A DNA stretch of 64,000 nucleotides, taken from positions 96,001 to 160,000 of the IMG/VR virus record IMGVR_UViG_3300045806_000063. One strand, given 5' to 3'. This DNA comes from a virus. Both the position numbers and the translations under genes were made by a program. This document shows, piece by piece, positions 39,946 through 60,311 of the stretch. The first letter of the stretch is position 1. Each line of letters starts with the position of its first letter. The notes under the pieces are model-generated. The model made no database searches. It was not told where the DNA came from and was given only the letters and a program-made list of their open reading frames with translations.

Positions 39946-40035
39946 CAGTGGCATTCTTTTAAATTAAAAACATATATCATCTAAGTGAGGATACTTAATT
40001 AGTCCTCTCTTTTAATAAATAACTGGAGAAATAAA

Positions 40036-40470
40036 ATGAGTAATGTACGAAGAGAATTAACAAAAGCTGATATTATTCTATTAGTCTGTGAATTCTCAGA
40101 TAGTACTAAGTGTCCCATGTCGGATATCCTGGTGGGCGCAGGATCTGCTATGGTTTTACTTGGGTTGCGAGAAACTACTAATGACGTAGACATGTCAGTA
40201 CCGGTTGATATATTTGAGGATTACTTAACTGAACCCCCACATATCAGCGAAATCGTGTACGATGAAACGTGGAGACCTCATCACATTGATCTTGTCAACG
40301 GGATAAGCCTTCGTAAACATATGGGGTTCAAGTTACAGCTAAAGGCTGATCAAGGCTTCTTTATCCAACATCCTAAAGATATACTGGACCTCAAACTCGA
40401 ACTCAATCGGGAAAAAGACCAAGCAGATATTAGAGCTTTACGCGAAGTTGCGAGCATATGGGGATATTAA
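40036..40470 (+). CDS. Small nucleotidyltransferase-fold protein
   Basis: GAGSAMVLLGLRETTNDVD (hG-S...DxD) and LKLELNREKDQADI. Confidence 0.7.
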   Translation: MSNVRRELTKADIILLVCEFSDSTKCPMSDILVGAGSAMVLLGLRETTNDVDMSVPVDIFEDYLTEPPHISEIVYDETWRPHHIDLVNGISLRKHMGFKLQLKADQGFFIQHPKDILDLKLELNREKDQADIRALREVASIWGY

Positions 40471-40472
40471 AA

Positions 40473-40799
40473 ATGAGCAGTAAAGGTTACACATTTAATG
40501 TAAAACTTACTGCTCATGGCTTTGTAGGCACTTGTCTAGAATTTCCAACATTACGAATAGTTGAGAGGAGTAGAGCAGATGCTTTAGCTGCTATTCAGCG
40601 TCTTACTGAGACAACTAAAGCGGGTAGAAACATTAGGAATGGACGAGTACCCTTAGCTATTAGTGATAGAACATATAGTGGGGAAATATCATTAAGGATA
40701 CCTCCAGAATTACATAAAAAACTAGTCTTTTTATCGAAGGAAAGAAGGACTACGTTAAACAGATTAATATCTGGACTTTTAGAGGAAGCCTTTGAATGA
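40473..40799 (+). CDS. hicB: HicB-family antitoxin (orphan)
   Basis: FVGTCLEFP...ALAAI N-domain and YSGEISLRIPPELHKKL...LNRLI ribbon-helix-helix. Confidence 0.75.
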   Translation: MSSKGYTFNVKLTAHGFVGTCLEFPTLRIVERSRADALAAIQRLTETTKAGRNIRNGRVPLAISDRTYSGEISLRIPPELHKKLVFLSKERRTTLNRLISGLLEEAFE

Positions 40800-40957
40800 A
40801 CGAGGAATCCGAGGAACTTATTCATGGTATCAATAAGACATTTAAACACGAGCTGGGTGGGGCATATGGCAACTGGGTATTTGAGCGCTACACTGCTGTT
40901 AAAATTGACGTAGAAACCTTAGAGAATAATTTTTTAAACCATTGGGGAAAAGAATGA
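40796..40957 (+). CDS. 53-aa protein ending in a terminase-derived segment (not in the ORF track)
   Basis: MNEESEEL...KIDVETLENNFLNHWGKE; ATGA overlaps at both ends. Confidence 0.65.
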   Translation: MNEESEELIHGINKTFKHELGGAYGNWVFERYTAVKIDVETLENNFLNHWGKE

Positions 40958-41394
40958 CAAGTGTAATTAAAGGTAGTTTTGCAGAATATCTGGCTAACAA
41001 CAAAAAACACACACCAAGTCTGGAACTGTACGTGTTAGCTGGAATACAGGCATCTGAAAATTCTTCAGTTATTCTGTATCTAGAGAGGAATGTATTCAAA
41101 CTAGAGACTATTCACAATGGAGATATCTCACTTGACTACATCTCTCCGCATTTAGTAGCCGAGGTCATTTACTGGATCAACGAAATACTACCATTGAATG
41201 ACAATTTATCAGTGGCATTATCACGTGGACTTAACATTCCAGTTAAAGTTAACATGCAGTTGAGTGTACCTGGTAAATGGGGACGATCTGATAGGCTGTC
41301 ATCAATGGTAGATGATGGCATTAAAGACGAATATCCTCAACATGACTACTTTAGACGGATACCTCAGACCAAGAGTAGTGGGAGGTCGAGGTAA
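40954..41394 (+). CDS. Hypothetical protein
   Basis: ATG 40954 coupled to the previous stop. Confidence 0.6.
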   Translation: MTSVIKGSFAEYLANNKKHTPSLELYVLAGIQASENSSVILYLERNVFKLETIHNGDISLDYISPHLVAEVIYWINEILPLNDNLSVALSRGLNIPVKVNMQLSVPGKWGRSDRLSSMVDDGIKDEYPQHDYFRRIPQTKSSGRSR

Positions 41395-41528
41395 ATCGTA
41401 CCACTGTCAGCCTTGATAAAGGCGATACATTGTTGGTAGGTCAATATACCGGCCCCCGCCTTGAAGAAGGCACCACACAGCTACCTGACGGAGCTGTAGT
41501 CAACTGGACGATAGTTTCCCTCCGGTAG
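41379..41528 (+). pseudogene. C-terminal half of an AcrIII-1/DUF1874 (STIV B116-like) ring nuclease
   Basis: Open frame between TAG 41376 and TAG 41526: WEVEVNRTTVSLDKGDTLLVGQYTGPRLEEGTTQLPDGAVVNWTIVSLR. No start codon and no SAIGH segment in frame. Confidence 0.75.
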
Positions 41529-41533
41529 GGTAA

Positions 41534-41567
41534 ATCTACCAGAGCGCCCTAGGGCGCTCTGGTAGAT
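41534..41567. terminator. 34-bp perfect palindrome centred on CCTAGG between convergent genes
   Basis: ATCTACCAGAGCGCCCTAGGGCGCTCTGGTAGAT then TTTATTTTTTTTT. Confidence 0.7.
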
Positions 41568-45439: not shown

Positions 45440-46411
45440 ATGAATAATGTTAAAAATAACAACAAAGTAAAAATTTATTACTGTGGTGGGGCTGGTGGAA
45501 AGTTAGCCCATCATGCTAACCTTTTGGAGATTGGTGACTTTACTGGTTTTGCTAAGGTAGAAACGGTGATCATGGATGCTTCATATTCGGATATCCCAGA
45601 TGACACCAAGCATGAGGTATACGTCCCGGCACACTGTGACGGTTTTGGTAAAGATCAGAAGGAAGCTTATGACTTCCTAAAGAATCATTTCAATGAGATG
45701 ATTCGTGAAAACCTACCAAGCGAATTTAATATCGTACTATTCAGTATGGCTGGTGCCACTGGAGCAAATATTGGTCTCGGTATGATTGAAGCCATTCTGA
45801 AACAAGGCAAACCCGTGGTTGGGGTAGCGATCTGCGCTATGGAGTGTGAGCGTACTACCACCAATACAAGGAACACGATTAAACGATTGGAAGTAATCGT
45901 TAACCGTACTCAAAAACCGGTAGTTATATCGTTCCATGACAATGGGGAATTCCCTATGTCAGTGGTTAACGATCATATCATTCAGGAGATTAAAGCTCTT
46001 TTATTACTGAACAGTGGTCAAAATACCGGTATTGATACTGAGGATGTCACTAACCTGATTGACTTTAGAGGGGTGACAAAGTTCGAACCAGGTTTGGTTG
46101 ATTTGATTATCACCACCAAACCTGACCAAGTAAAAGTCAATGTGGCAATTGCTGCACTGAGTCTGTATAACGACCTGGATTCACCCAAACTGGATATTAC
46201 CAGTATCTACTCAGGTTTTGGTATCATTCCAGACGGCGCTCAAGGTGCAACAAAGGAACCTATTCCTGAGGCGCACTTCATCGTAACAAATGAGTATCTG
46301 GAAAGTCGATTAGATCTACTGGATAAAAAGGTAAAGGACTATACCGATGCAAGAGAGCTGATTAAAGGATGCGCTGGTCCTAGAAACACGAATACCGAGT
46401 TCGAGTTTTAG
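45440..46411 (+). CDS. phuZ: Phage tubulin PhuZ
   Basis: IYYCGGAGG, MDAS, DGFGKDQ, FSMAGATGANIG, IDTEDVTN, short acidic aromatic C-tail TEFEF. Confidence 0.92.
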   Translation: MNNVKNNNKVKIYYCGGAGGKLAHHANLLEIGDFTGFAKVETVIMDASYSDIPDDTKHEVYVPAHCDGFGKDQKEAYDFLKNHFNEMIRENLPSEFNIVLFSMAGATGANIGLGMIEAILKQGKPVVGVAICAMECERTTTNTRNTIKRLEVIVNRTQKPVVISFHDNGEFPMSVVNDHIIQEIKALLLLNSGQNTGIDTEDVTNLIDFRGVTKFEPGLVDLIITTKPDQVKVNVAIAALSLYNDLDSPKLDITSIYSGFGIIPDGAQGATKEPIPEAHFIVTNEYLESRLDLLDKKVKDYTDARELIKGCAGPRNTNTEFEF

Positions 46412-53076: not shown

Positions 53077-53356
53077 GTTCTATTCTCCTAAGAAGTCATA
53101 GGATGGAAGATAAGATGATTTTGTTAGTGATATTATTATAGTAGTTAGAAATTAAATATTAAATTAATTTCCGTATATATAAATATGGGAGAGGGGGGAT
53201 ACCCCCCCGACCACGACCAGAGAAAAGAATTAAAAGATTTAATAATATTATTAAATAGGGAAAATACAATCAGAGGTATAATCCACCTAGGTGGATTATA
53301 CTCCTTTAGCATGTGCATAGCCACATGCATGGAGATGGTGTGTAACCTCCGCTTAA

Positions 53357-53419
53357 AGCTTACAACATAGTGACTAGGATGACTGCTAGGCAACAACCTA
53401 GCAGCAGTGTAACTTATAA
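53357..53419 (+). repeat. 63-bp direct repeat, left copy, with internal hairpin
   Basis: AGCTTACAACATAGTGACTAGGATGACTGCTAGG-CAACAA-CCTAGCAGCAGTGTAACTTATAA. Confidence 0.9.
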
Positions 53420-53422
53420 TGG

Positions 53423-53518
53423 TATATTCAAATAATTTTCATTTATATATCATCTAGATGAGATTACTAAATAGTGATTCTTAAGTAGTCATTCTTTTAA
53501 TAGCAAATTATATCGGAG
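53423..53518 (+). promoter_or_regulatory. Type A promoter-leader-RBS module, copy 4
   Basis: TATATTCAAATAATTTTCATTTATATATCATCTAGATGAGATTACTAAAT...ATTCTTTTAATAGCAAATTATATCGGAG. Confidence 0.75.
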
Positions 53519-53526
53519 ATAAGATT

Positions 53527-53739
53527 ATGGCATTACACACTGGTGAAGAAAAGGGCTACAAACCAAGAACTCCAAATTTCCGGATCGTCTACAAGTTCCC
53601 CATCCCTGGGGGACAGTGGTACGACAACTGGCCCGAGGAGGTCATTGCCTCCTCAGCTGAGGAGGCAATGCTCCAGGCCTCAAGGGAGGTGCTCAGGGTG
53701 GAGGCGATTCCAGCGGCACAAAACAGGAATCGCGCTTAA
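53527..53739 (+). CDS. Hypothetical protein (70 aa, cassette gene 1)
   Basis: ATG directly after the type A RBS. Confidence 0.7.
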   Translation: MALHTGEEKGYKPRTPNFRIVYKFPIPGGQWYDNWPEEVIASSAEEAMLQASREVLRVEAIPAAQNRNRA

Positions 53740-53813
53740 ATCAAACCCTAGAAGGTTAGCAACCGACTTTCGTCAATTTTAAAGCCGGGAAATCCCGGCA
53801 AGGATTTAACATC

Positions 53814-54218
53814 ATGACCGAAGCTCAGGATGAGATATTCAACCTGACGCAACACGCGGCAACGGCTGACCAAGCCGAAGCTGGTGTTGTTGAACCAGTA
53901 TACAAAGCAGGAATTCAGTCCTGCTTAACGTTCGTAGGCATACCAACTGCCTATGATATTAAAACTAGGGCTAGCAGCTTAGCAGCTAGCGCACGACAAT
54001 CTGGCTGTAAAAAAGCCATGATTGGCGGCGCGCCTTATCTGATGAGCGCGCTGGAAGCTGCGCTCATCAAGGTAGGTGTTACCCCTGTCTACGCTTACTC
54101 AGATAGAGTAAGCGTAGAAACAAGAAACACTGACGGAACAGTCAGCAAGTCAACGGTGTTCAAGCACCTTGGTTTTGTTGAGGTCAGCTTACAACATAGT
54201 GGCTGGGATGACTGCTAG
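53814..54218 (+). CDS. Csx20-like protein, candidate viral cyclic-oligoadenylate ring nuclease
   Basis: IFNLTQHAATADQ...LTFVGIPT...AMIGGAPYLMSALE...PVYAYSDRVSVETRNTDGTVSKSTVFKHLGFVEV, parallel to recalled Csx20 motifs (H-x-x-T-x-DQ; IPVYxTTxR...DG...FKHxxF). Confidence 0.6.
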   Translation: MTEAQDEIFNLTQHAATADQAEAGVVEPVYKAGIQSCLTFVGIPTAYDIKTRASSLAASARQSGCKKAMIGGAPYLMSALEAALIKVGVTPVYAYSDRVSVETRNTDGTVSKSTVFKHLGFVEVSLQHSGWDDC

Positions 54219-54248
54219 GTTGTTGCCTAGCAGCAGTATAACTTATAA
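54186..54248 (+). repeat. 63-bp direct repeat, right copy, hairpin loop inverted
   Basis: AGCTTACAACATAGTGGCTGGGATGACTGCTAGG-TTGTTG-CCTAGCAGCAGTATAACTTATAA; 3 substitutions plus a 6-nt inversion relative to the left copy. Confidence 0.9.
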
Positions 54249-54288
54249 GGGGATTAAATACTACTGTAGTATGTTAGACTGTTGAGTA

Positions 54289-54322
54289 ATTACTCCTTCC
54301 TCGATATCGAGGAAGGAGTAAT
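54289..54322. terminator. 34-bp perfect palindrome centred on GATATC
   Basis: ATTACTCCTTCCTCGATATCGAGGAAGGAGTAAT. Confidence 0.65.
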
Positions 54323-54344
54323 GATGTATTCTTTATTTTTTTTT

Positions 54345-54391
54345 CTTTTAAATCGAAAACATATATTATCTGAGTGATAGTCCGTAGTTAA
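54345..54391 (+). promoter_or_regulatory. Type B promoter module, copy 3
   Basis: 46/47 identical to 22631-22677. Confidence 0.7.
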
Positions 54392-54411
54392 TTAATTTAG
54401 GAGTGGTAGTT

Positions 54412-54645
54412 ATGGCAAGTATGATGGTTAGGCATCTGGTGGTATCTCGTAAGTACATGCATGGTTACAAGGAAGGAGATCGGGTAATTGTTAGGTTGGA
54501 TAGCGGACTGACATTTCATGCGGTTGTTAAGTTATATTCAGTACGCAGGCTAGTAGTACAGGATGTAAGGTATGTTAATGAACTAAGTTGGAGAGGACAG
54601 TTTCTGGTGTCTCCAAAACATATTTTAAATTTAGTAGGGGGATGA
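54412..54645 (+). CDS. Small hypothetical protein (SH3/KOW-like)
   Basis: GYKEGDRVIVRLDSG; AGGAG RBS. Confidence 0.6.
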   Translation: MASMMVRHLVVSRKYMHGYKEGDRVIVRLDSGLTFHAVVKLYSVRRLVVQDVRYVNELSWRGQFLVSPKHILNLVGG

Positions 54646-56505: not shown

Positions 56506-56756
56506 GTAATATGTCAGATACCGTATTCGTACCAGATGTAGTGTTAGATCCAGTAATGCAATGATTTAATAAATCATTGTCATCAAGTATAGGATGTACC
56601 TGGATTCAAATTTCACTAAGAAATATATTATCTTAGTGATGGCAAATATAATGGAGTAATAAAAAATAAACAGATAAGTTAATACTATGTCAAAAATACC
56701 ACTCAATCGTAACTGATTGAGTACCATCCCGTTGTAAAAAATATATAGAGGTAAGT

Positions 56757-58664
56757 ATGTCAGAAGTAAGACAAGAAACATTAGGAACAAACCGTACCAG
56801 CGGTGATCAAGTAAAGCAAGAAAGACCAGAAAGAGGTCCTTCTCGTAGACCAATTGAAGATGCCCAAGGTGAGCGTAAACCACGCCCATCTTCCAAGCTG
56901 TTTAATCACTCCATGGCGGGTAGCAGAAGCACTGCTGATCTGGAAGAGATAGTAAAAACGTTTGAGGCTATCTGCAAACAATATGCAGAAGTTGAGAACA
57001 TCGTCATTGAAGTAAAACCAATCAGCCACAATCTGGCAATTCCAGCAATCCTGTTGATCTATCGGGAAGGCTCAAATAAGGTACGATATACCGCACTCTT
57101 ACCATCTGGTATGCTGCAGGGCACTATTGCTGACAAAGAAGAAAATGAAAGAGGACAAAAATTTTACACTCCTCGATTTGCAGCAGATCTTTGGCCTGGC
57201 CTTATGGAGGATACAGCGGAAGATCTAATCAACCGTACGTACTTCAATGGTAATGCCCAGAAAGGCTGGATACGACTCTGTAGTGTTATCGTACTGCCAG
57301 AGCATTCCGATTATCGTCAGTTAAATACTGCGATTATCGCATTTGATCATGGAGTTACTGCACTGTTGGCAATTTCTCGTTTGGAGAAAGGTGAGTCTAC
57401 AGCCTCATACTGCTATCAGGATTTTGAAGATCGGGGCATGAAATTGTCAGGGATTGCTGAAGTCAATCCGACTGGTACAATTCTCAGTACCTTAGGTGAG
57501 CCACTGGCAGTGGATTTCAAATTATCAGTGTTAGCAAAAACTGTAAACAATGGTTCAGAGAATCTGCATGATACTGGCACTAGCATTGCGATAACGACAG
57601 TTTATGGGGCTATCGACTTCCAGCTTCTGCCGGAAGAAGAAGAAGTCAAAACCATTAATCGGGATAAGTTTTACCCAGTGGTAATTCCTAAACTGATCAT
57701 TAAGCAATCAAGTTCGGTTAATCCGAACAACCCAGAAAACACAGATTGCTTGATGTCTCAAATCCTGGGGCTGTTAATGGTCCGTCTCTACTCTGAGAAG
57801 CCTGAGAGATGGGGCCAGATGTTTGAACCCGATAATGCTTCTCAGAACAACAATATTGGCGCCTTGGGTCTGGTCGGCAATCCGTACGCTGATACTACAC
57901 TGGAGTTAGGAGTTCACAATGTTGTGAGTAAAGTCACACATGGCCGAAATGCTGGTGGAAAACTGGTAGCTGATCTACTGAATGAGTATTGTTCAGTAGC
58001 TCCAATGATTATATTGGAAATTCCAGAAGGTGGTCCTCTTGAGGCCCTCCAGAATTATCTGGTGGAAGAGACTAGTGCAAACTATTCGATTATTGCTAAC
58101 GAACTGTCAAGTTTCGTTGGGGTTCCAGATAGCTTTGCTGAAGCCTGGGAAAGTGAAGGTGGACCAGCAAGAATTCCGATCTTGGAATTAGAATCGCCAC
58201 TGAACTTACCATTGATTCGCTACACCGGCCATGCGGAAGCAGGTGGTATTCTCCATGATCCAAATGAAATCGATCTGTTACATCTGTTAAACGTAGGTGT
58301 ATCGATGGATGTTATTCAAGATTATGACCAGTTGCATTCACCGGGTGCAAACCATCCAGCTGAACTTAATCAAAGGTATAGTAACATTAAGCGTGTTCTT
58401 GATAATGCTAAAATCACTGGAACCTCAGTGCAATATTGCATTAATATGGACTGGTTAAACCTGGTAGATGATTTCCTCGGGAGCTATGGCATAACCATTG
58501 ATTTGGATGAAGGTCTGACCTTTGGTAATAATGCTTTCGGTCTGTCACGTGGTGGTAGTAGCAAACATGCGGAAGGTTCTGCTATGTTCCGCCGCAGTGG
58601 TCTGTCACGGACTCGTACTTCCCGTCCTATTGGTGGTCTGAATTCAAGCAGACGTTCATCTTAA
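56757..58664 (+). CDS. chmA: Chimallin, phage nuclear shell protein (phiKZ gp54-like)
   Basis: 635 aa, charged disordered N-arm, Gly/Ser/Arg-rich C-tail, high-expression codon bias, strong hairpin after it, immediately upstream of nvRNAP beta' (gp54-gp55 synteny). Call rests mainly on synteny and size. Confidence 0.75.
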   Translation: MSEVRQETLGTNRTSGDQVKQERPERGPSRRPIEDAQGERKPRPSSKLFNHSMAGSRSTADLEEIVKTFEAICKQYAEVENIVIEVKPISHNLAIPAILLIYREGSNKVRYTALLPSGMLQGTIADKEENERGQKFYTPRFAADLWPGLMEDTAEDLINRTYFNGNAQKGWIRLCSVIVLPEHSDYRQLNTAIIAFDHGVTALLAISRLEKGESTASYCYQDFEDRGMKLSGIAEVNPTGTILSTLGEPLAVDFKLSVLAKTVNNGSENLHDTGTSIAITTVYGAIDFQLLPEEEEVKTINRDKFYPVVIPKLIIKQSSSVNPNNPENTDCLMSQILGLLMVRLYSEKPERWGQMFEPDNASQNNNIGALGLVGNPYADTTLELGVHNVVSKVTHGRNAGGKLVADLLNEYCSVAPMIILEIPEGGPLEALQNYLVEETSANYSIIANELSSFVGVPDSFAEAWESEGGPARIPILELESPLNLPLIRYTGHAEAGGILHDPNEIDLLHLLNVGVSMDVIQDYDQLHSPGANHPAELNQRYSNIKRVLDNAKITGTSVQYCINMDWLNLVDDFLGSYGITIDLDEGLTFGNNAFGLSRGGSSKHAEGSAMFRRSGLSRTRTSRPIGGLNSSRRSS

Positions 58665-58674
58665 CGTAACACTA

Positions 58675-58703
58675 GGGTATAGAGCACGATGTGCTCTATA
58701 CCC
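58675..58703 (+). terminator. Hairpin terminator after chimallin
   Basis: GGGTATAGAGCAC-GAT-GTGCTCTATACCC then TTTTTTT. Confidence 0.75.
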
Positions 58704-58733
58704 GTACTTTTTTTATTATTAAGAAAGGAAAGT

Positions 58734-60311
58734 ATGGCAATCTATATCGATATACCAAATTTCGATGAGATATTTGAGGCGTTTGAAGCGAGTGAAGGAG
58801 TTATCCTACTCAACGATGTACCATATGTTACAGAGGAGGATAAAGTTCTATTTCAGTCGTTAATAGTAACTGAAACAGAAAGTGATGTGCTTTCATCTGT
58901 TCCAAAATGCAGATGTGGTAAATATCAAAATGCTTATAACGCAGGAGATGGAACAACCCCTGGTAGAATTTGTGAAGTATGTAATACGGAGGTGCAGTAC
59001 CCTGCAGAGGAGACAATTGATTCAAAGGTATGGATACGAGTACCAGATGGAGTAGAAGGATTCATTTCCCCATACTTCTGGAACAAGTTAACCACGTTAG
59101 CAGCTTCTACTAAGGGTCTTAATATCTTACGCTGGGCAATCGATCCTAAAGTAGCAGTACCGTCTAATGCAGGAGAGGTAGTAAAAGAAAAGATAACATA
59201 TCTCACTAATTGTAACTGGGTAAGAAGTCTTAATTACTTCATTAATAACTGGGAAGTATTTTTTGAAATGATTCAAAGTACGACTCCTCGTGCTAAAAGG
59301 TCAGCAGTTAAAAGTGATCTTGATATTCTAAGAGGTTATTCTAAATTATTCTTTCCTAAATATCTCCCACTACCTACAAAGGCATTGATGATTATCGAAA
59401 AGACTAATGTGGGTAATTATGCAGATACTGTTACCATGTCTTCTGCCATGGCTGCGGCAAAGACAATTGGCGTTATTAATGCACCAAGAGGCCCTTCTGC
59501 TAAACCATTTTCAATAAAACGTCTAGAGATAGCAACTGTAGATATCTGTCAAAATCTTACAGGATATTGCCAGGTAGCCTTTAAGACAAACATCTGTGGT
59601 AAGTCTGGTTATTTACGAGGTAATGGTTATAAAGCACGATGTGATTGGACCGCTAGGGGAGTAGTTACATCTATACATACTCCACATGACTATGCTGAAC
59701 TACACCTTCCCTGGGTTCAGGGAGTGGAGTTATTTAAGATACATTTGTATAACAAATTAATTAAGAAGCATAACTTTACCCATAGAGCTACAATCCTCAA
59801 ATTGAAACAAGCGGTAAACGTATACGATCCGCTGATAGATACTTTATTTAAGGAACTGATAGCGTCTGGTAAGATTCTTGATCGTAAGATCACTTGTGAT
59901 ATGGACTTCTATATTAGTAGAGGGCTTACTAAAGAACAAGTTGAAACGATTACCCTACCTAAAGTAGGTATACCGGTAATGTTTCAGCGAAATCCAACTT
60001 TGGGCATGGGTTCTGCACAACTACAAGCGTTAACAAGGATTAAAACAGATCTATCGGATAAGTCAGTGTCCCTTAGCGATCTTGTTGCTACAGCGTACAA
60101 TATGGACCATGATGGGGATGCGATGAACTTGACTCTATTATTGCAGCCTCGTTTTGTTGAAGCATCAGAGCCGATGGATATACGGTATGTGATTCATGAC
60201 ACTGTCAAGTTGGGTAAACTGAATGACAATGTTAAACTACCAGACCCTGCATGTATGACATTAGGGAACTTTGTGAATCAGCGATATCATGAGAATTTAA
60301 AATCCCATTAA
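58734..60311 (+). CDS. Non-virion RNA polymerase beta' subunit, N-terminal part (phiKZ gp55-like)
   Basis: Zn ribbon PKCRCG...CEVC, GKSGYLRGN, RCDWTARGVVTS, FQRNPTL, catalytic NMDHDGD; ATG 58734 with AAGGA RBS. Confidence 0.9.
   Translation: MAIYIDIPNFDEIFEAFEASEGVILLNDVPYVTEEDKVLFQSLIVTETESDVLSSVPKCRCGKYQNAYNAGDGTTPGRICEVCNTEVQYPAEETIDSKVWIRVPDGVEGFISPYFWNKLTTLAASTKGLNILRWAIDPKVAVPSNAGEVVKEKITYLTNCNWVRSLNYFINNWEVFFEMIQSTTPRAKRSAVKSDLDILRGYSKLFFPKYLPLPTKALMIIEKTNVGNYADTVTMSSAMAAAKTIGVINAPRGPSAKPFSIKRLEIATVDICQNLTGYCQVAFKTNICGKSGYLRGNGYKARCDWTARGVVTSIHTPHDYAELHLPWVQGVELFKIHLYNKLIKKHNFTHRATILKLKQAVNVYDPLIDTLFKELIASGKILDRKITCDMDFYISRGLTKEQVETITLPKVGIPVMFQRNPTLGMGSAQLQALTRIKTDLSDKSVSLSDLVATAYNMDHDGDAMNLTLLLQPRFVEASEPMDIRYVIHDTVKLGKLNDNVKLPDPACMTLGNFVNQRYHENLKSH

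Follow-up and report, generated by a model that had tools for sequence, protein, structure and literature searches.

The gene at positions 53,814 to 54,218 of the window, by which we mean the whole 64,000-nucleotide stretch of viral DNA analysed here, encodes a member of the Csx20/MJ1673 superfamily. We consider it probable (roughly 60%) that its product is a dimeric cyclic oligoadenylate (cOA) ring nuclease, made early, which would blunt type III CRISPR signalling. Possibly, cA3-based CBASS signalling would be blunted as well. The gene can be described as follows.

53814..54218, plus strand: Csx20-like (Pfam MJ1673 family) gene of 134 aa, with the conserved domain at residues 7-124

An AAGGA ribosome-binding site, read from the sequence, lies 9 nt 5' of the ATG, and the motifs which the sequence-only reading had quoted from this protein (NLTQHAATADQ, AMIGGAPYLM and PVYAYSDRVSVET..DGTVSKSTVFKHLGF) are all found exactly in the open reading frame (ORF). 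When a 90%-clustered protein database was searched, 153 relatives were recovered at E ≤ 1e-3, most of them 45-58% identical and typically about 120 aa long. A profile built from 23 family members matched 2581 cluster representatives (clusters at 50% identity), and for 980 of these the E value was 1e-30 or lower. Because these 153 proteins and 2581 profile clusters match, ORF 53814..54218 is no chance reading frame. The family alignment contains 21 invariant positions, including N10-L-T-Q-H14, Q20, G71-G-A-P74, R98, K112, F116 and H118, and the window protein keeps every one of them (21/21). Tandem two-domain fusions also occur naturally within this phage-type family, and the extra parts of the fused members gave no match in a Pfam search.

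Homology to Csx20 was assessed from both directions. The NCBIfam model CAS_Csx20 (NF040559) matched the window protein with an E value of 2.6e-7 and 31 bits, against a curated cut-off of 70 bits, and the alignment was limited to the C-terminal 41 residues (82-122 on profile positions 82-122). A six-frame search of the genome with the same model gave 30.1 bits. As a reference set we used 30 bona fide Csx20 genes from Campylobacterota genomes, which score 124-165 bits on NF040559; no true Csx20 was present in 251 genomes sampled from the phylum to which a cyanobacterial MAG belongs. The consensus of the 30 proteins reads FSHxLTxxQ ... LVQGDFG ... VYATTKR ... E ... DG ... K ... FKHxRFREY, and the C-terminus that the sequence-only reading had given for Csx20 (IPVYxTTxR...DG...FKHxRF) agrees with it. 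In the reverse direction, the phage-family HMM singled out exactly 31 true Csx20 among 202 candidate ORFs (E 9e-11 to 2.6e-5), while the best of the 171 other ORFs reached only 0.011. Comparison of the phage family with the 30 Csx20 by hhalign gave a probability of 98.0% and an E value of 1.8e-13 over 113 columns (7-124 against 3-127), which is the full length of both proteins. This profile comparison is one of those by which the sequence-only reading had proposed that its Csx20-like assignment could be overturned; it returned a match, and the NCBIfam model and the reciprocal HMM search bear the assignment out too.

The Pfam family PF27247 'MJ1673' is precomputed in the source database for the window protein and for all its relatives, and 'MJ1673' is also the name that the protein atlas gives to the PF27247 family. 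The M. jannaschii MJ1673 protein is, in turn, where the CAS_Csx20 model matches in control genomes. In the joint alignment, H14, Q20, G72, Y93, R98, E102, G108, F116, H118 and F121 are conserved at 80% or more in both the phage family and Csx20. Since the NCBIfam match, the HMM separation, hhalign, PF27247 and the shared residues agree, homology to Csx20 over the whole domain, and with it membership of the Csx20/MJ1673 superfamily, is established at the level of sequence comparison.

Other family searches gave little. A local Pfam-A search of the window protein returned no family at E ≤ 10, DUF1874 included, because PF27247 is newer than that copy of Pfam. In NCBIfam no family but Csx20 was found, save one weak unrelated match, and neither Csx15 nor Csx16 was matched. 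The PHROGs search yielded one meaningless match (0.17).

The window protein nevertheless scores below the Csx20 equivalog level (31 against 70 bits), which by this profile puts it outside Csx20 in the narrow sense. The phage group and Csx20 each score about 20-40 bits on the other's profile and more than 120 bits on their own, and the central loop reads GGAPY in the phage group but QGDFG in Csx20. The protein is thus placed in a large, mostly viral GGAPY subclade, apart from the CRISPR-associated Csx20 proper. With Csx20 it shares the length class of about 125 aa, the full-length homology, a predicted dimer, the invariant His, Gln, Gly, Tyr, Arg, Glu, Phe, His and Phe, and the C-terminal signature Y-A-x-[ST]-x-R ... 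DG ... K ... F-x-H-x-x-F. It differs in having NLTQH in place of FSH, in addition to the central loop, and in being encoded on a phage cassette and not beside cas10. Judged by this shared conservation, a Csx20-type active site may be retained.

The AF2 model, calculated on the family alignment, is an alpha/beta fold with a pLDDT of 92.8 and is confident up to residue 124. Strands are predicted at 8-10, 67-70, 90-104 and 110-123, with helices between them. The best structural matches in the PDB (Foldseek, VIA-align) were generic Rossmann-type domains (racemases) with Z of 6-7. The following matches score below these racemase-type values.

Cam1 CARF: Z 5.9, rmsd 3.4 Å, 105 residues aligned (Foldseek probability 0.96)
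Cap4 SAVED: Z 5.7, rmsd 3.4 Å, 102 residues aligned
Csm6: Z 5.4, rmsd 6.1 Å, 118 residues aligned
Sso2081, a ring nuclease: Z 4.7, rmsd 4.5 Å, 101 residues aligned
Sis0455, a ring nuclease: Z 4.4, rmsd 4.0 Å, 105 residues aligned

As CARF/SAVED domains and ring nucleases are mixed here with generic Rossmann domains, the PDB matches of the modelled structure do not discriminate family membership. A PDB sequence search with the window protein found nothing, so that no Csx20 structure was reachable by sequence, and a BFVD search returned unannotated viral family members only.

The predicted homodimer scored 0.63 against 0.02 for the best control, with 100% of the contacts shared by three runs, at a mark that is reached by 20/30 proteins solved as pairs and by 1/23 solved as single chains. 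The partner pLDDT was 84. The predicted symmetric interface covers residues 42-50, 70-82, 93-97 and 119-130 and includes the invariant GGAPY loop, the helix after it, Y93 and the last strand. The prediction supports a homodimer, and the natural tandem two-domain versions of the family point to a dimer likewise.

Cleavage of cA4 has been published for cellular Csx20, in agreement with the earlier description of Csx20 as a type III-associated cA4 ring nuclease. It also cleaves cA3 at ten-fold higher enzyme concentration, and the cleavage, as shown for cellular Csx20, is metal-free. Among the extrinsic ring nucleases of type III loci, Csx20 is the most frequent. Of the CRISPR types, type III alone has been shown to restrict nucleus-forming phages, since exported mRNA is sensed and signalled by cOA; a Serratia type III/NucC system, which is cA3-based, restricts such a phage. 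In the literature searched there was no report of a countermeasure to type III CRISPR from nucleus-forming phages.

From these relatives we infer the ligand, catalysis, timing and anti-CRISPR effect of the window protein in the following way. As a phage-type member of Csx20/MJ1673, a family of small, putatively CARF-like Rossmann proteins, it would form a symmetric homodimer whose shared cOA pocket is lined by the NLTQH loop after the first strand and the GGAPY loop after the central strand. Bound cA4, and perhaps cA3, would be cut without metal to linear products as in cellular Csx20. The enzyme, made early, would drain the Cas10 second messenger raised on phage mRNA outside the chimallin shell, and the cOA-activated effectors would stay off.

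Two rivals to this proposal matter most: a different nucleotide target and binding without cleavage. On the former, the protein would be a nuclease or binder of some other signal (CBASS cA3, cyclic dinucleotides or another messenger), and type III would not be its main target. Csx20 does degrade cA3 at high enzyme concentration, cA3 is common to CBASS and to the Serratia type III/NucC system, and the SAVED domain of the CBASS effectors Cap4 and Cap5 scores like CARF in the structure search; moreover, a great many phages carry the family, and type III systems need not be present in their hosts. We still think this rather unlikely, for type III loci encode the sole relatives with defined biochemistry, which at low enzyme concentration are specific for cA4, and the phage context that has been published, a single one, lies in an anti-CRISPR island.

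A non-cleaving cOA sponge, like some Csx15 members and the phage proteins Tad and Acb2, would fit the same homology, predicted fold and dimer. The departure of the central motif GGAPY from the QGDFG of enzymatic Csx20 is in its favour, as are the non-enzymatic members documented in the related family Csx15. However, in the phage clade, as in enzymatic Csx20, both histidines, the arginine and the glutamate never vary. A sponge would also be needed in stoichiometric amounts, whereas the catalytic action of a ring nuclease can be supplied by a small early gene. We accordingly judge a sponge unlikely.

The carrier, an uncultured phage whose IMG/VR record spans 181,108 bp, has a GC content of 38% and direct terminal repeats; it was found in permafrost and peat metagenomes. 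Two genes downstream of the Csx20-like gene characterize it.

56757..58664, plus strand: divergent chimallin (nuclear shell protein) homologue of 635 aa, with an early-type promoter core at 56624
58689..60311, plus strand: multisubunit RNA polymerase beta'-like subunit of phiKZ type (Pfam RNA_pol_Rpb1_2)

The chimallin homologue matches phrog_4795 'nuclear shell protein' with an E value of 2.8e-13 in its C-terminal third, and BLASTP aligns it at 22% identity over 340 aa (E 4e-5) with a strong chimallin of another viral record. It had no match among PDB sequences and none in cultured phages (tblastn). The Csx20-like ORF ends 2.5 kb before it, which is the distance given by the sequence-only reading. 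The beta'-like subunit is 29-31% identical over 95-99% of its length to 289 jumbo-phage records (tblastn), among them 201phi2-1, Phabio and Moabite, and its gene adjoins chimallin as it does in 201phi2-1. A tubulin-like match at 45683-45931 of the window was weak (E 2e-4) and below the cut-off. Because of the chimallin, the adjacent beta'-like RNA polymerase gene and the weak tubulin match, the carrier is, by its gene content, a very distant relative of the chimalliviruses. The earlier description as a nucleus-forming phage therefore stands for the genes (chimallin, the nvRNAP beta'-like and tubulin-like genes) and for the enrichment of early promoters; the nucleus itself is what these genes would predict.

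A megablast search of the cassette region against cultured phages returned nothing, and the window contains no tRNA genes. An 'acrIII-1 remnant' had also been considered at 39968-41567 and was rejected: DUF1874 had no match at E ≤ 1 in the five ORFs there, and only HicB was confirmed.

Upstream of chimallin, the Csx20-like gene lies within a cassette bounded by repeats, hairpins and promoter modules.

53357..53425, plus strand: upstream copy of a 69-nt direct repeat, with the hairpin CTGCTAGG-CAACAA-CCTAGCAG at 53383-53404
53426..53526, plus strand: 'type A' promoter-leader module, with its core at 53437-53455, a conserved 5' leader and the ribosome-binding site GGAGA before the ATG at 53527
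53527..53739, plus strand: first cassette gene, an orphan of 70 aa with GC 0.56, whose ATG is in register with the starts behind other type A modules
53784..53799, plus strand: GC hairpin GCCGGG-AAAT-CCCGGC between the two cassette genes, without a T-run
54186..54254, plus strand: downstream copy of the 69-nt direct repeat, 84% identical to the upstream copy, with a hairpin at 54212-54233
54289..54322, plus strand: perfect 17+17 palindrome with a T-run behind it; this terminator-like element ends the cassette unit
54345..54391, plus strand: 'type B' promoter module AAAACATATATTATCTGAGTGAT, which drives the next gene (54403-54645)

The type A module occurs in the genome in 11 near-identical copies of about 105-120 nt, all on the plus strand. 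The copies are near-identical from TATTCAAATAATTTTCA through ATCTAGATGAGATTACTAAATAGTGATTCTTAAGTAGTCATTCTTTTAATAGCAAAT to the GGAG ribosome site and the ATG, and each has a different hairpin 5' and a different gene 3'. Their core reads TTTCA[AAC/TTT]ATA[T/C]AT[T/C]ATCT. The published consensus sequences of chimallivirus early promoters are WTTTYAAACCTACATTATY for EL, TTTYARRYAKATATTATYW for OBP/N1M2 and TATATTAC for phiKZ. The core at 53437-53455 has 3 mismatches to the published OBP/N1M2/EL consensus, and one type A copy is 1 mismatch off that of EL. Across the window, 19 sites lie within 3 mismatches of the OBP core against 5.45 ± 2.2 expected; 18 of them are on the plus strand, and they include those before the neighbour genes of chimallin and before the tubulin-like gene. 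A sigma-70 promoter scan of the window stayed below chance. The consensus match supports the view that type A is an early promoter. It had been claimed that such a promoter lies upstream of the Csx20-like gene. The 11-copy element is real and fits the early consensus, but the copy at 53426-53526 sits directly before the 70-aa ORF, so the Csx20-like gene is the second of its unit. Near-identical copies of the type B module were located at genome positions 77, 105609, 118648, 180753 and 181092.

RNA contigs of 749 nt (53503-54251) and 772 nt (53481-54252), from two permafrost metatranscriptome runs of different studies, span the cassette without a mismatch and read through the hairpin at 53784-53799. 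The intergenic stretches 53096-53465 and 54280-54353 are covered in DNA runs of other samples and uncovered in the RNA runs. These contigs hint that the cassette is transcribed as one RNA; DNA carry-over is possible, and the contigs give neither levels nor ends. Reading the contig ends as the start and end of the transcript was rejected as unsafe: both ends fall on repeat boundaries and may be breaks of the assembly. Loose ends in the RNA runs were also seen for the sister type A cassettes.

The 69-nt repeat is present in only 2 copies in the whole 181-kb genome, and these bracket 829 bp. The differences between the copies are concentrated in the hairpin loop, and reverse-complementing the upstream hairpin gives exactly the downstream one, which means that the loop is inverted between the two. 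The conserved C-terminus of the family (…GFVEV) stops exactly at the start of the downstream repeat. The Csx20-like ORF continues for ten more codons (SLQHSGWDDC) inside that repeat copy, from which they derive, and then ends at a TAG in the hairpin stem. Since the ORF runs into the repeat in this way, the original stop codon was evidently lost at the insertion junction.

The first cassette gene had no Pfam or PHROG match and no homologue in any fetched locus. The GC content of the cassette is 0.49-0.56 compared with 0.38 for the genome, and of the ten GC-richest genes in the genome, 8/10 lie directly behind type A modules. The other modules carry a NUDIX hydrolase, a GT2 glycosyltransferase and eight orphans. 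The type A modules with their payloads look like a system of exchangeable early-expression cassettes. The gene probably arrived with an 829-bp GC-rich two-gene cassette that was inserted at the hairpin and placed behind one of the phage's 11 stereotyped promoter-leader modules of early type. Mobility of the cassette we infer from its one duplicated junction; where the site was covered, no joint skipping the cassette was present among the RNA and DNA contigs.

A comparable arrangement is known from T4-type phages, in which PeSLs (promoter-early stem-loop), reportedly described by Arbiol et al. 2010, are mobile regulatory cassettes. Repeated hairpin and early-promoter modules flank unrelated, composition-varying accessory genes there, exchangeable via recombination of the repeats. 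The window resembles this arrangement in its repeated modules of hairpin and early-type promoter beside unrelated accessory genes. It differs in that its module reaches through a conserved 5' leader, ribosome-binding site and ATG, and in that its promoter is of the chimallivirus virion-RNAP type.

The phage-type family was also followed beyond the carrier. It was found with one sequence pattern on at least 79 IMG/VR loci, where the neighbours are phage genes, and on 25 MAG-contig loci from unrelated phyla; in the atlas, its clusters are 50-82% 'Viruses'. Over the 104 loci, terminase, SNF2 helicase, ParB, HerA-like and RecT genes recur as neighbours, and clustering of the neighbourhoods revealed no conserved partner gene. 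The window gene itself sits between a phrog_3938 gene and chimallin and has no type III CRISPR-cas locus beside it. Among carriers whose genomes are complete, most are phages of 45-60 kb without chimallin. Two more viral fragments have a strong chimallin (E 2e-92 and 6e-70) and a family member 15-17 kb away. The three chimallin-linked copies are only 46-49% identical to each other, whereas the window copy is 62% identical to copies on small-phage contigs, which suggests that the chimallivirus copies were acquired separately.

Among cultured phages, tblastn matched six records: Rhodothermus RM378, Pasteurella Pm86, three Fusobacterium phages and one uncultured Caudoviricetes. None of the six (0/6) is among the chimallivirus hits listed. 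The 289 cultured records matched by the chimallivirus-type RNAP subunit come mostly from other hosts. The family is thus not special to nucleus-forming phages and is rare in cultured ones.

A further alternative is a role outside defence, for example as a small nucleotide-binding regulator or an accessory of nucleotide metabolism. In its favour, Rossmann-like folds of many functions score equally well against the model, and in other phages the gene lies near nucleotide kinases, helicases and recombination genes, none of them a fixed partner. Yet the sequence homology is specific to Csx20, other Pfam and NCBIfam families being without a match, and the patchy, cassette-borne and compositionally foreign spread is typical of accessory counter-defence and not of core metabolism, so we hold a non-defence role to be quite improbable. 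That the gene is a passenger, captured recently and now without function in this phage, is very improbable: its natural stop is lost, its C-terminus is foreign, with the last 10 codons taken from the flanking repeat, and its cassette stands out in GC, but the ORF is intact with all its invariant residues, the model is confident to residue 124, and the gene has a ribosome-binding site and is represented in RNA libraries.

The closest precedents for a phage-borne Csx20-like gene come from two sources. The study that reported the activity also surveyed 28,114 phage genomes and counted five with Csx20 (four in the published version). Homologues of csx20 have further been described in Pasteurella anti-CRISPR operons controlled by an RHH protein (Aca14) and proposed to be co-opted cas counter-defence (bioRxiv 10.64898/2026.07.27.740549). 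Pasteurella phage Pm86 encodes a GGAP-type protein as a C-terminal fragment, which has 56% identity to the stretch 68-122 of the window protein, and an RHH gene follows directly. Because the Pm86 copy is GGAP-type and lies beside RHH, the published csx20-aca14 candidates belong in the same phage-type clade. The csx20-aca14 operons (Pm86, P. multocida prophage) therefore share with the window gene the subclade and the proposed counter-defence role. Unlike them, the window cassette lacks an RHH/Aca gene, its carrier encodes chimallin, and expression apparently proceeds via a chimallivirus early promoter-leader and not from an Aca-repressed promoter.

With AcrIII-1/Crn2 (DUF1874), the window protein would have in common the early destruction of cA4 by a small, dimeric, metal-independent enzyme. 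The two families are nevertheless unrelated, as the window protein has no DUF1874 match and its fold, putatively CARF-like Rossmann, is a different one. The suggestion that this is a viral anti-CRISPR class distinct from AcrIII-1 has been anticipated by the 4-5 phage genomes and by the csx20-aca14 proposal. The idea of a phage Csx20 as counter-defence is thus already known, and what is new here is the chimallivirus setting (3 records), the anatomy of the cassette and the size of the viral clade.

On its sequence, the window gene is a credible candidate for a phage counter-defence. The GGAPY branch comprises about a thousand 50%-identity clusters, as against the 4-5 phage genomes counted with CRISPR-derived profiles. 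This suggests that Csx20 surveys with such profiles miss most viral members of the family, in which case the frequency of viral cOA degradation would have to be revised. More tentatively, and short of what we would favour at present, the branch might make up an extensive family of viral ring nucleases that has been overlooked although it is no rarer than AcrIII-1, and which nucleus-forming phages have captured repeatedly and independently, in this case on a plug-in cassette for early expression, to close the one gap that cOA signalling from exported mRNA leaves in the protection by the chimallin shell. For the carrier phage itself, the 11 promoter-leader cassettes provide a list of further candidate genes for early takeover or counter-defence.

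Homologues of the phage-type Csx20 protein were found in two further viral fragments that carry a chimallin gene, and a third, unannotated homologue lies at the end of the Pasteurella phage Pm86 record.

L098:6001-6603, homologue in a 114-kb IMG/VR fragment encoding chimallin
L079:6001-6360, homologue in an 84.6-kb fragment encoding chimallin
L153:309-699, homologue in Pm86, at the record end

The L098 copy is 200 aa in length, including a C-terminal tail of 70 residues of unassigned nature, and was again GC-richer than its surroundings (0.49 vs 0.38 for the locus). In Pm86, the C-terminal half alone could be read as an ORF, and the csx20 homologue overlaps the start of an RHH (Aca14-like) gene. 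Among the family proteins P0121-P0140 we also observed tandem two-domain members (about 260-340 aa); others reach 480-670 aa, and some are extended at the N-terminus by about 130 aa. The extra parts of these longer or fused proteins gave no Pfam match.

Early-type promoter sequences were observed at other loci of the phage as well.

window 45440-46411 (genome 141440-142411), tubulin-like ORF, PF00091 match with E 2e-4, below the cut-off
window 40036-41528, operon behind an early-type promoter, 3' of a large terminase-like gene

The early-type core ATATATATATTATCT stands 5' of the tubulin-like ORF, which is a candidate PhuZ. Four products are encoded in the operon: a HicB-family protein (E 8e-9), a DUF6036-like nucleotidyltransferase (weak match) and two unknowns. 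An acrIII-1 remnant considered there gained no support from DUF1874. Beyond the window, at genome 77 and 181092, a copy of the type B promoter sits in the direct terminal repeat at either end of the genome, nearly identical to the type B copies at window 9609, 22648 and 54362.

The 69-nt repeat that brackets the csx20-like cassette contains a hairpin in both of its copies.

window 53383-53404 and 54212-54233, hairpins, exact reverse complements of one another

They share a common stem, and their 6-nt loops run in opposite orientations (CAACAA vs TTGTTG). Such an arrangement suggests that a strand switch or an inversion, mediated by the hairpin, took place at the insertion junction.

The type A module is a promoter-leader-RBS-ATG unit present in 11 near-identical copies in the genome, all on the + strand.

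genome 4758, 7454, 19630, 26399, 31206, 36241 and 94925, +, type A modules before the window
window 9084, 22201, 36382 and 53452, +, type A modules inside the window

Upstream of every module lies a hairpin, different for each. The genes behind the modules are mutually unrelated and in most cases GC-rich, and include one NUDIX hydrolase, one GT2 glycosyltransferase and eight orphans. The type A units look like exchangeable cassettes for early expression.
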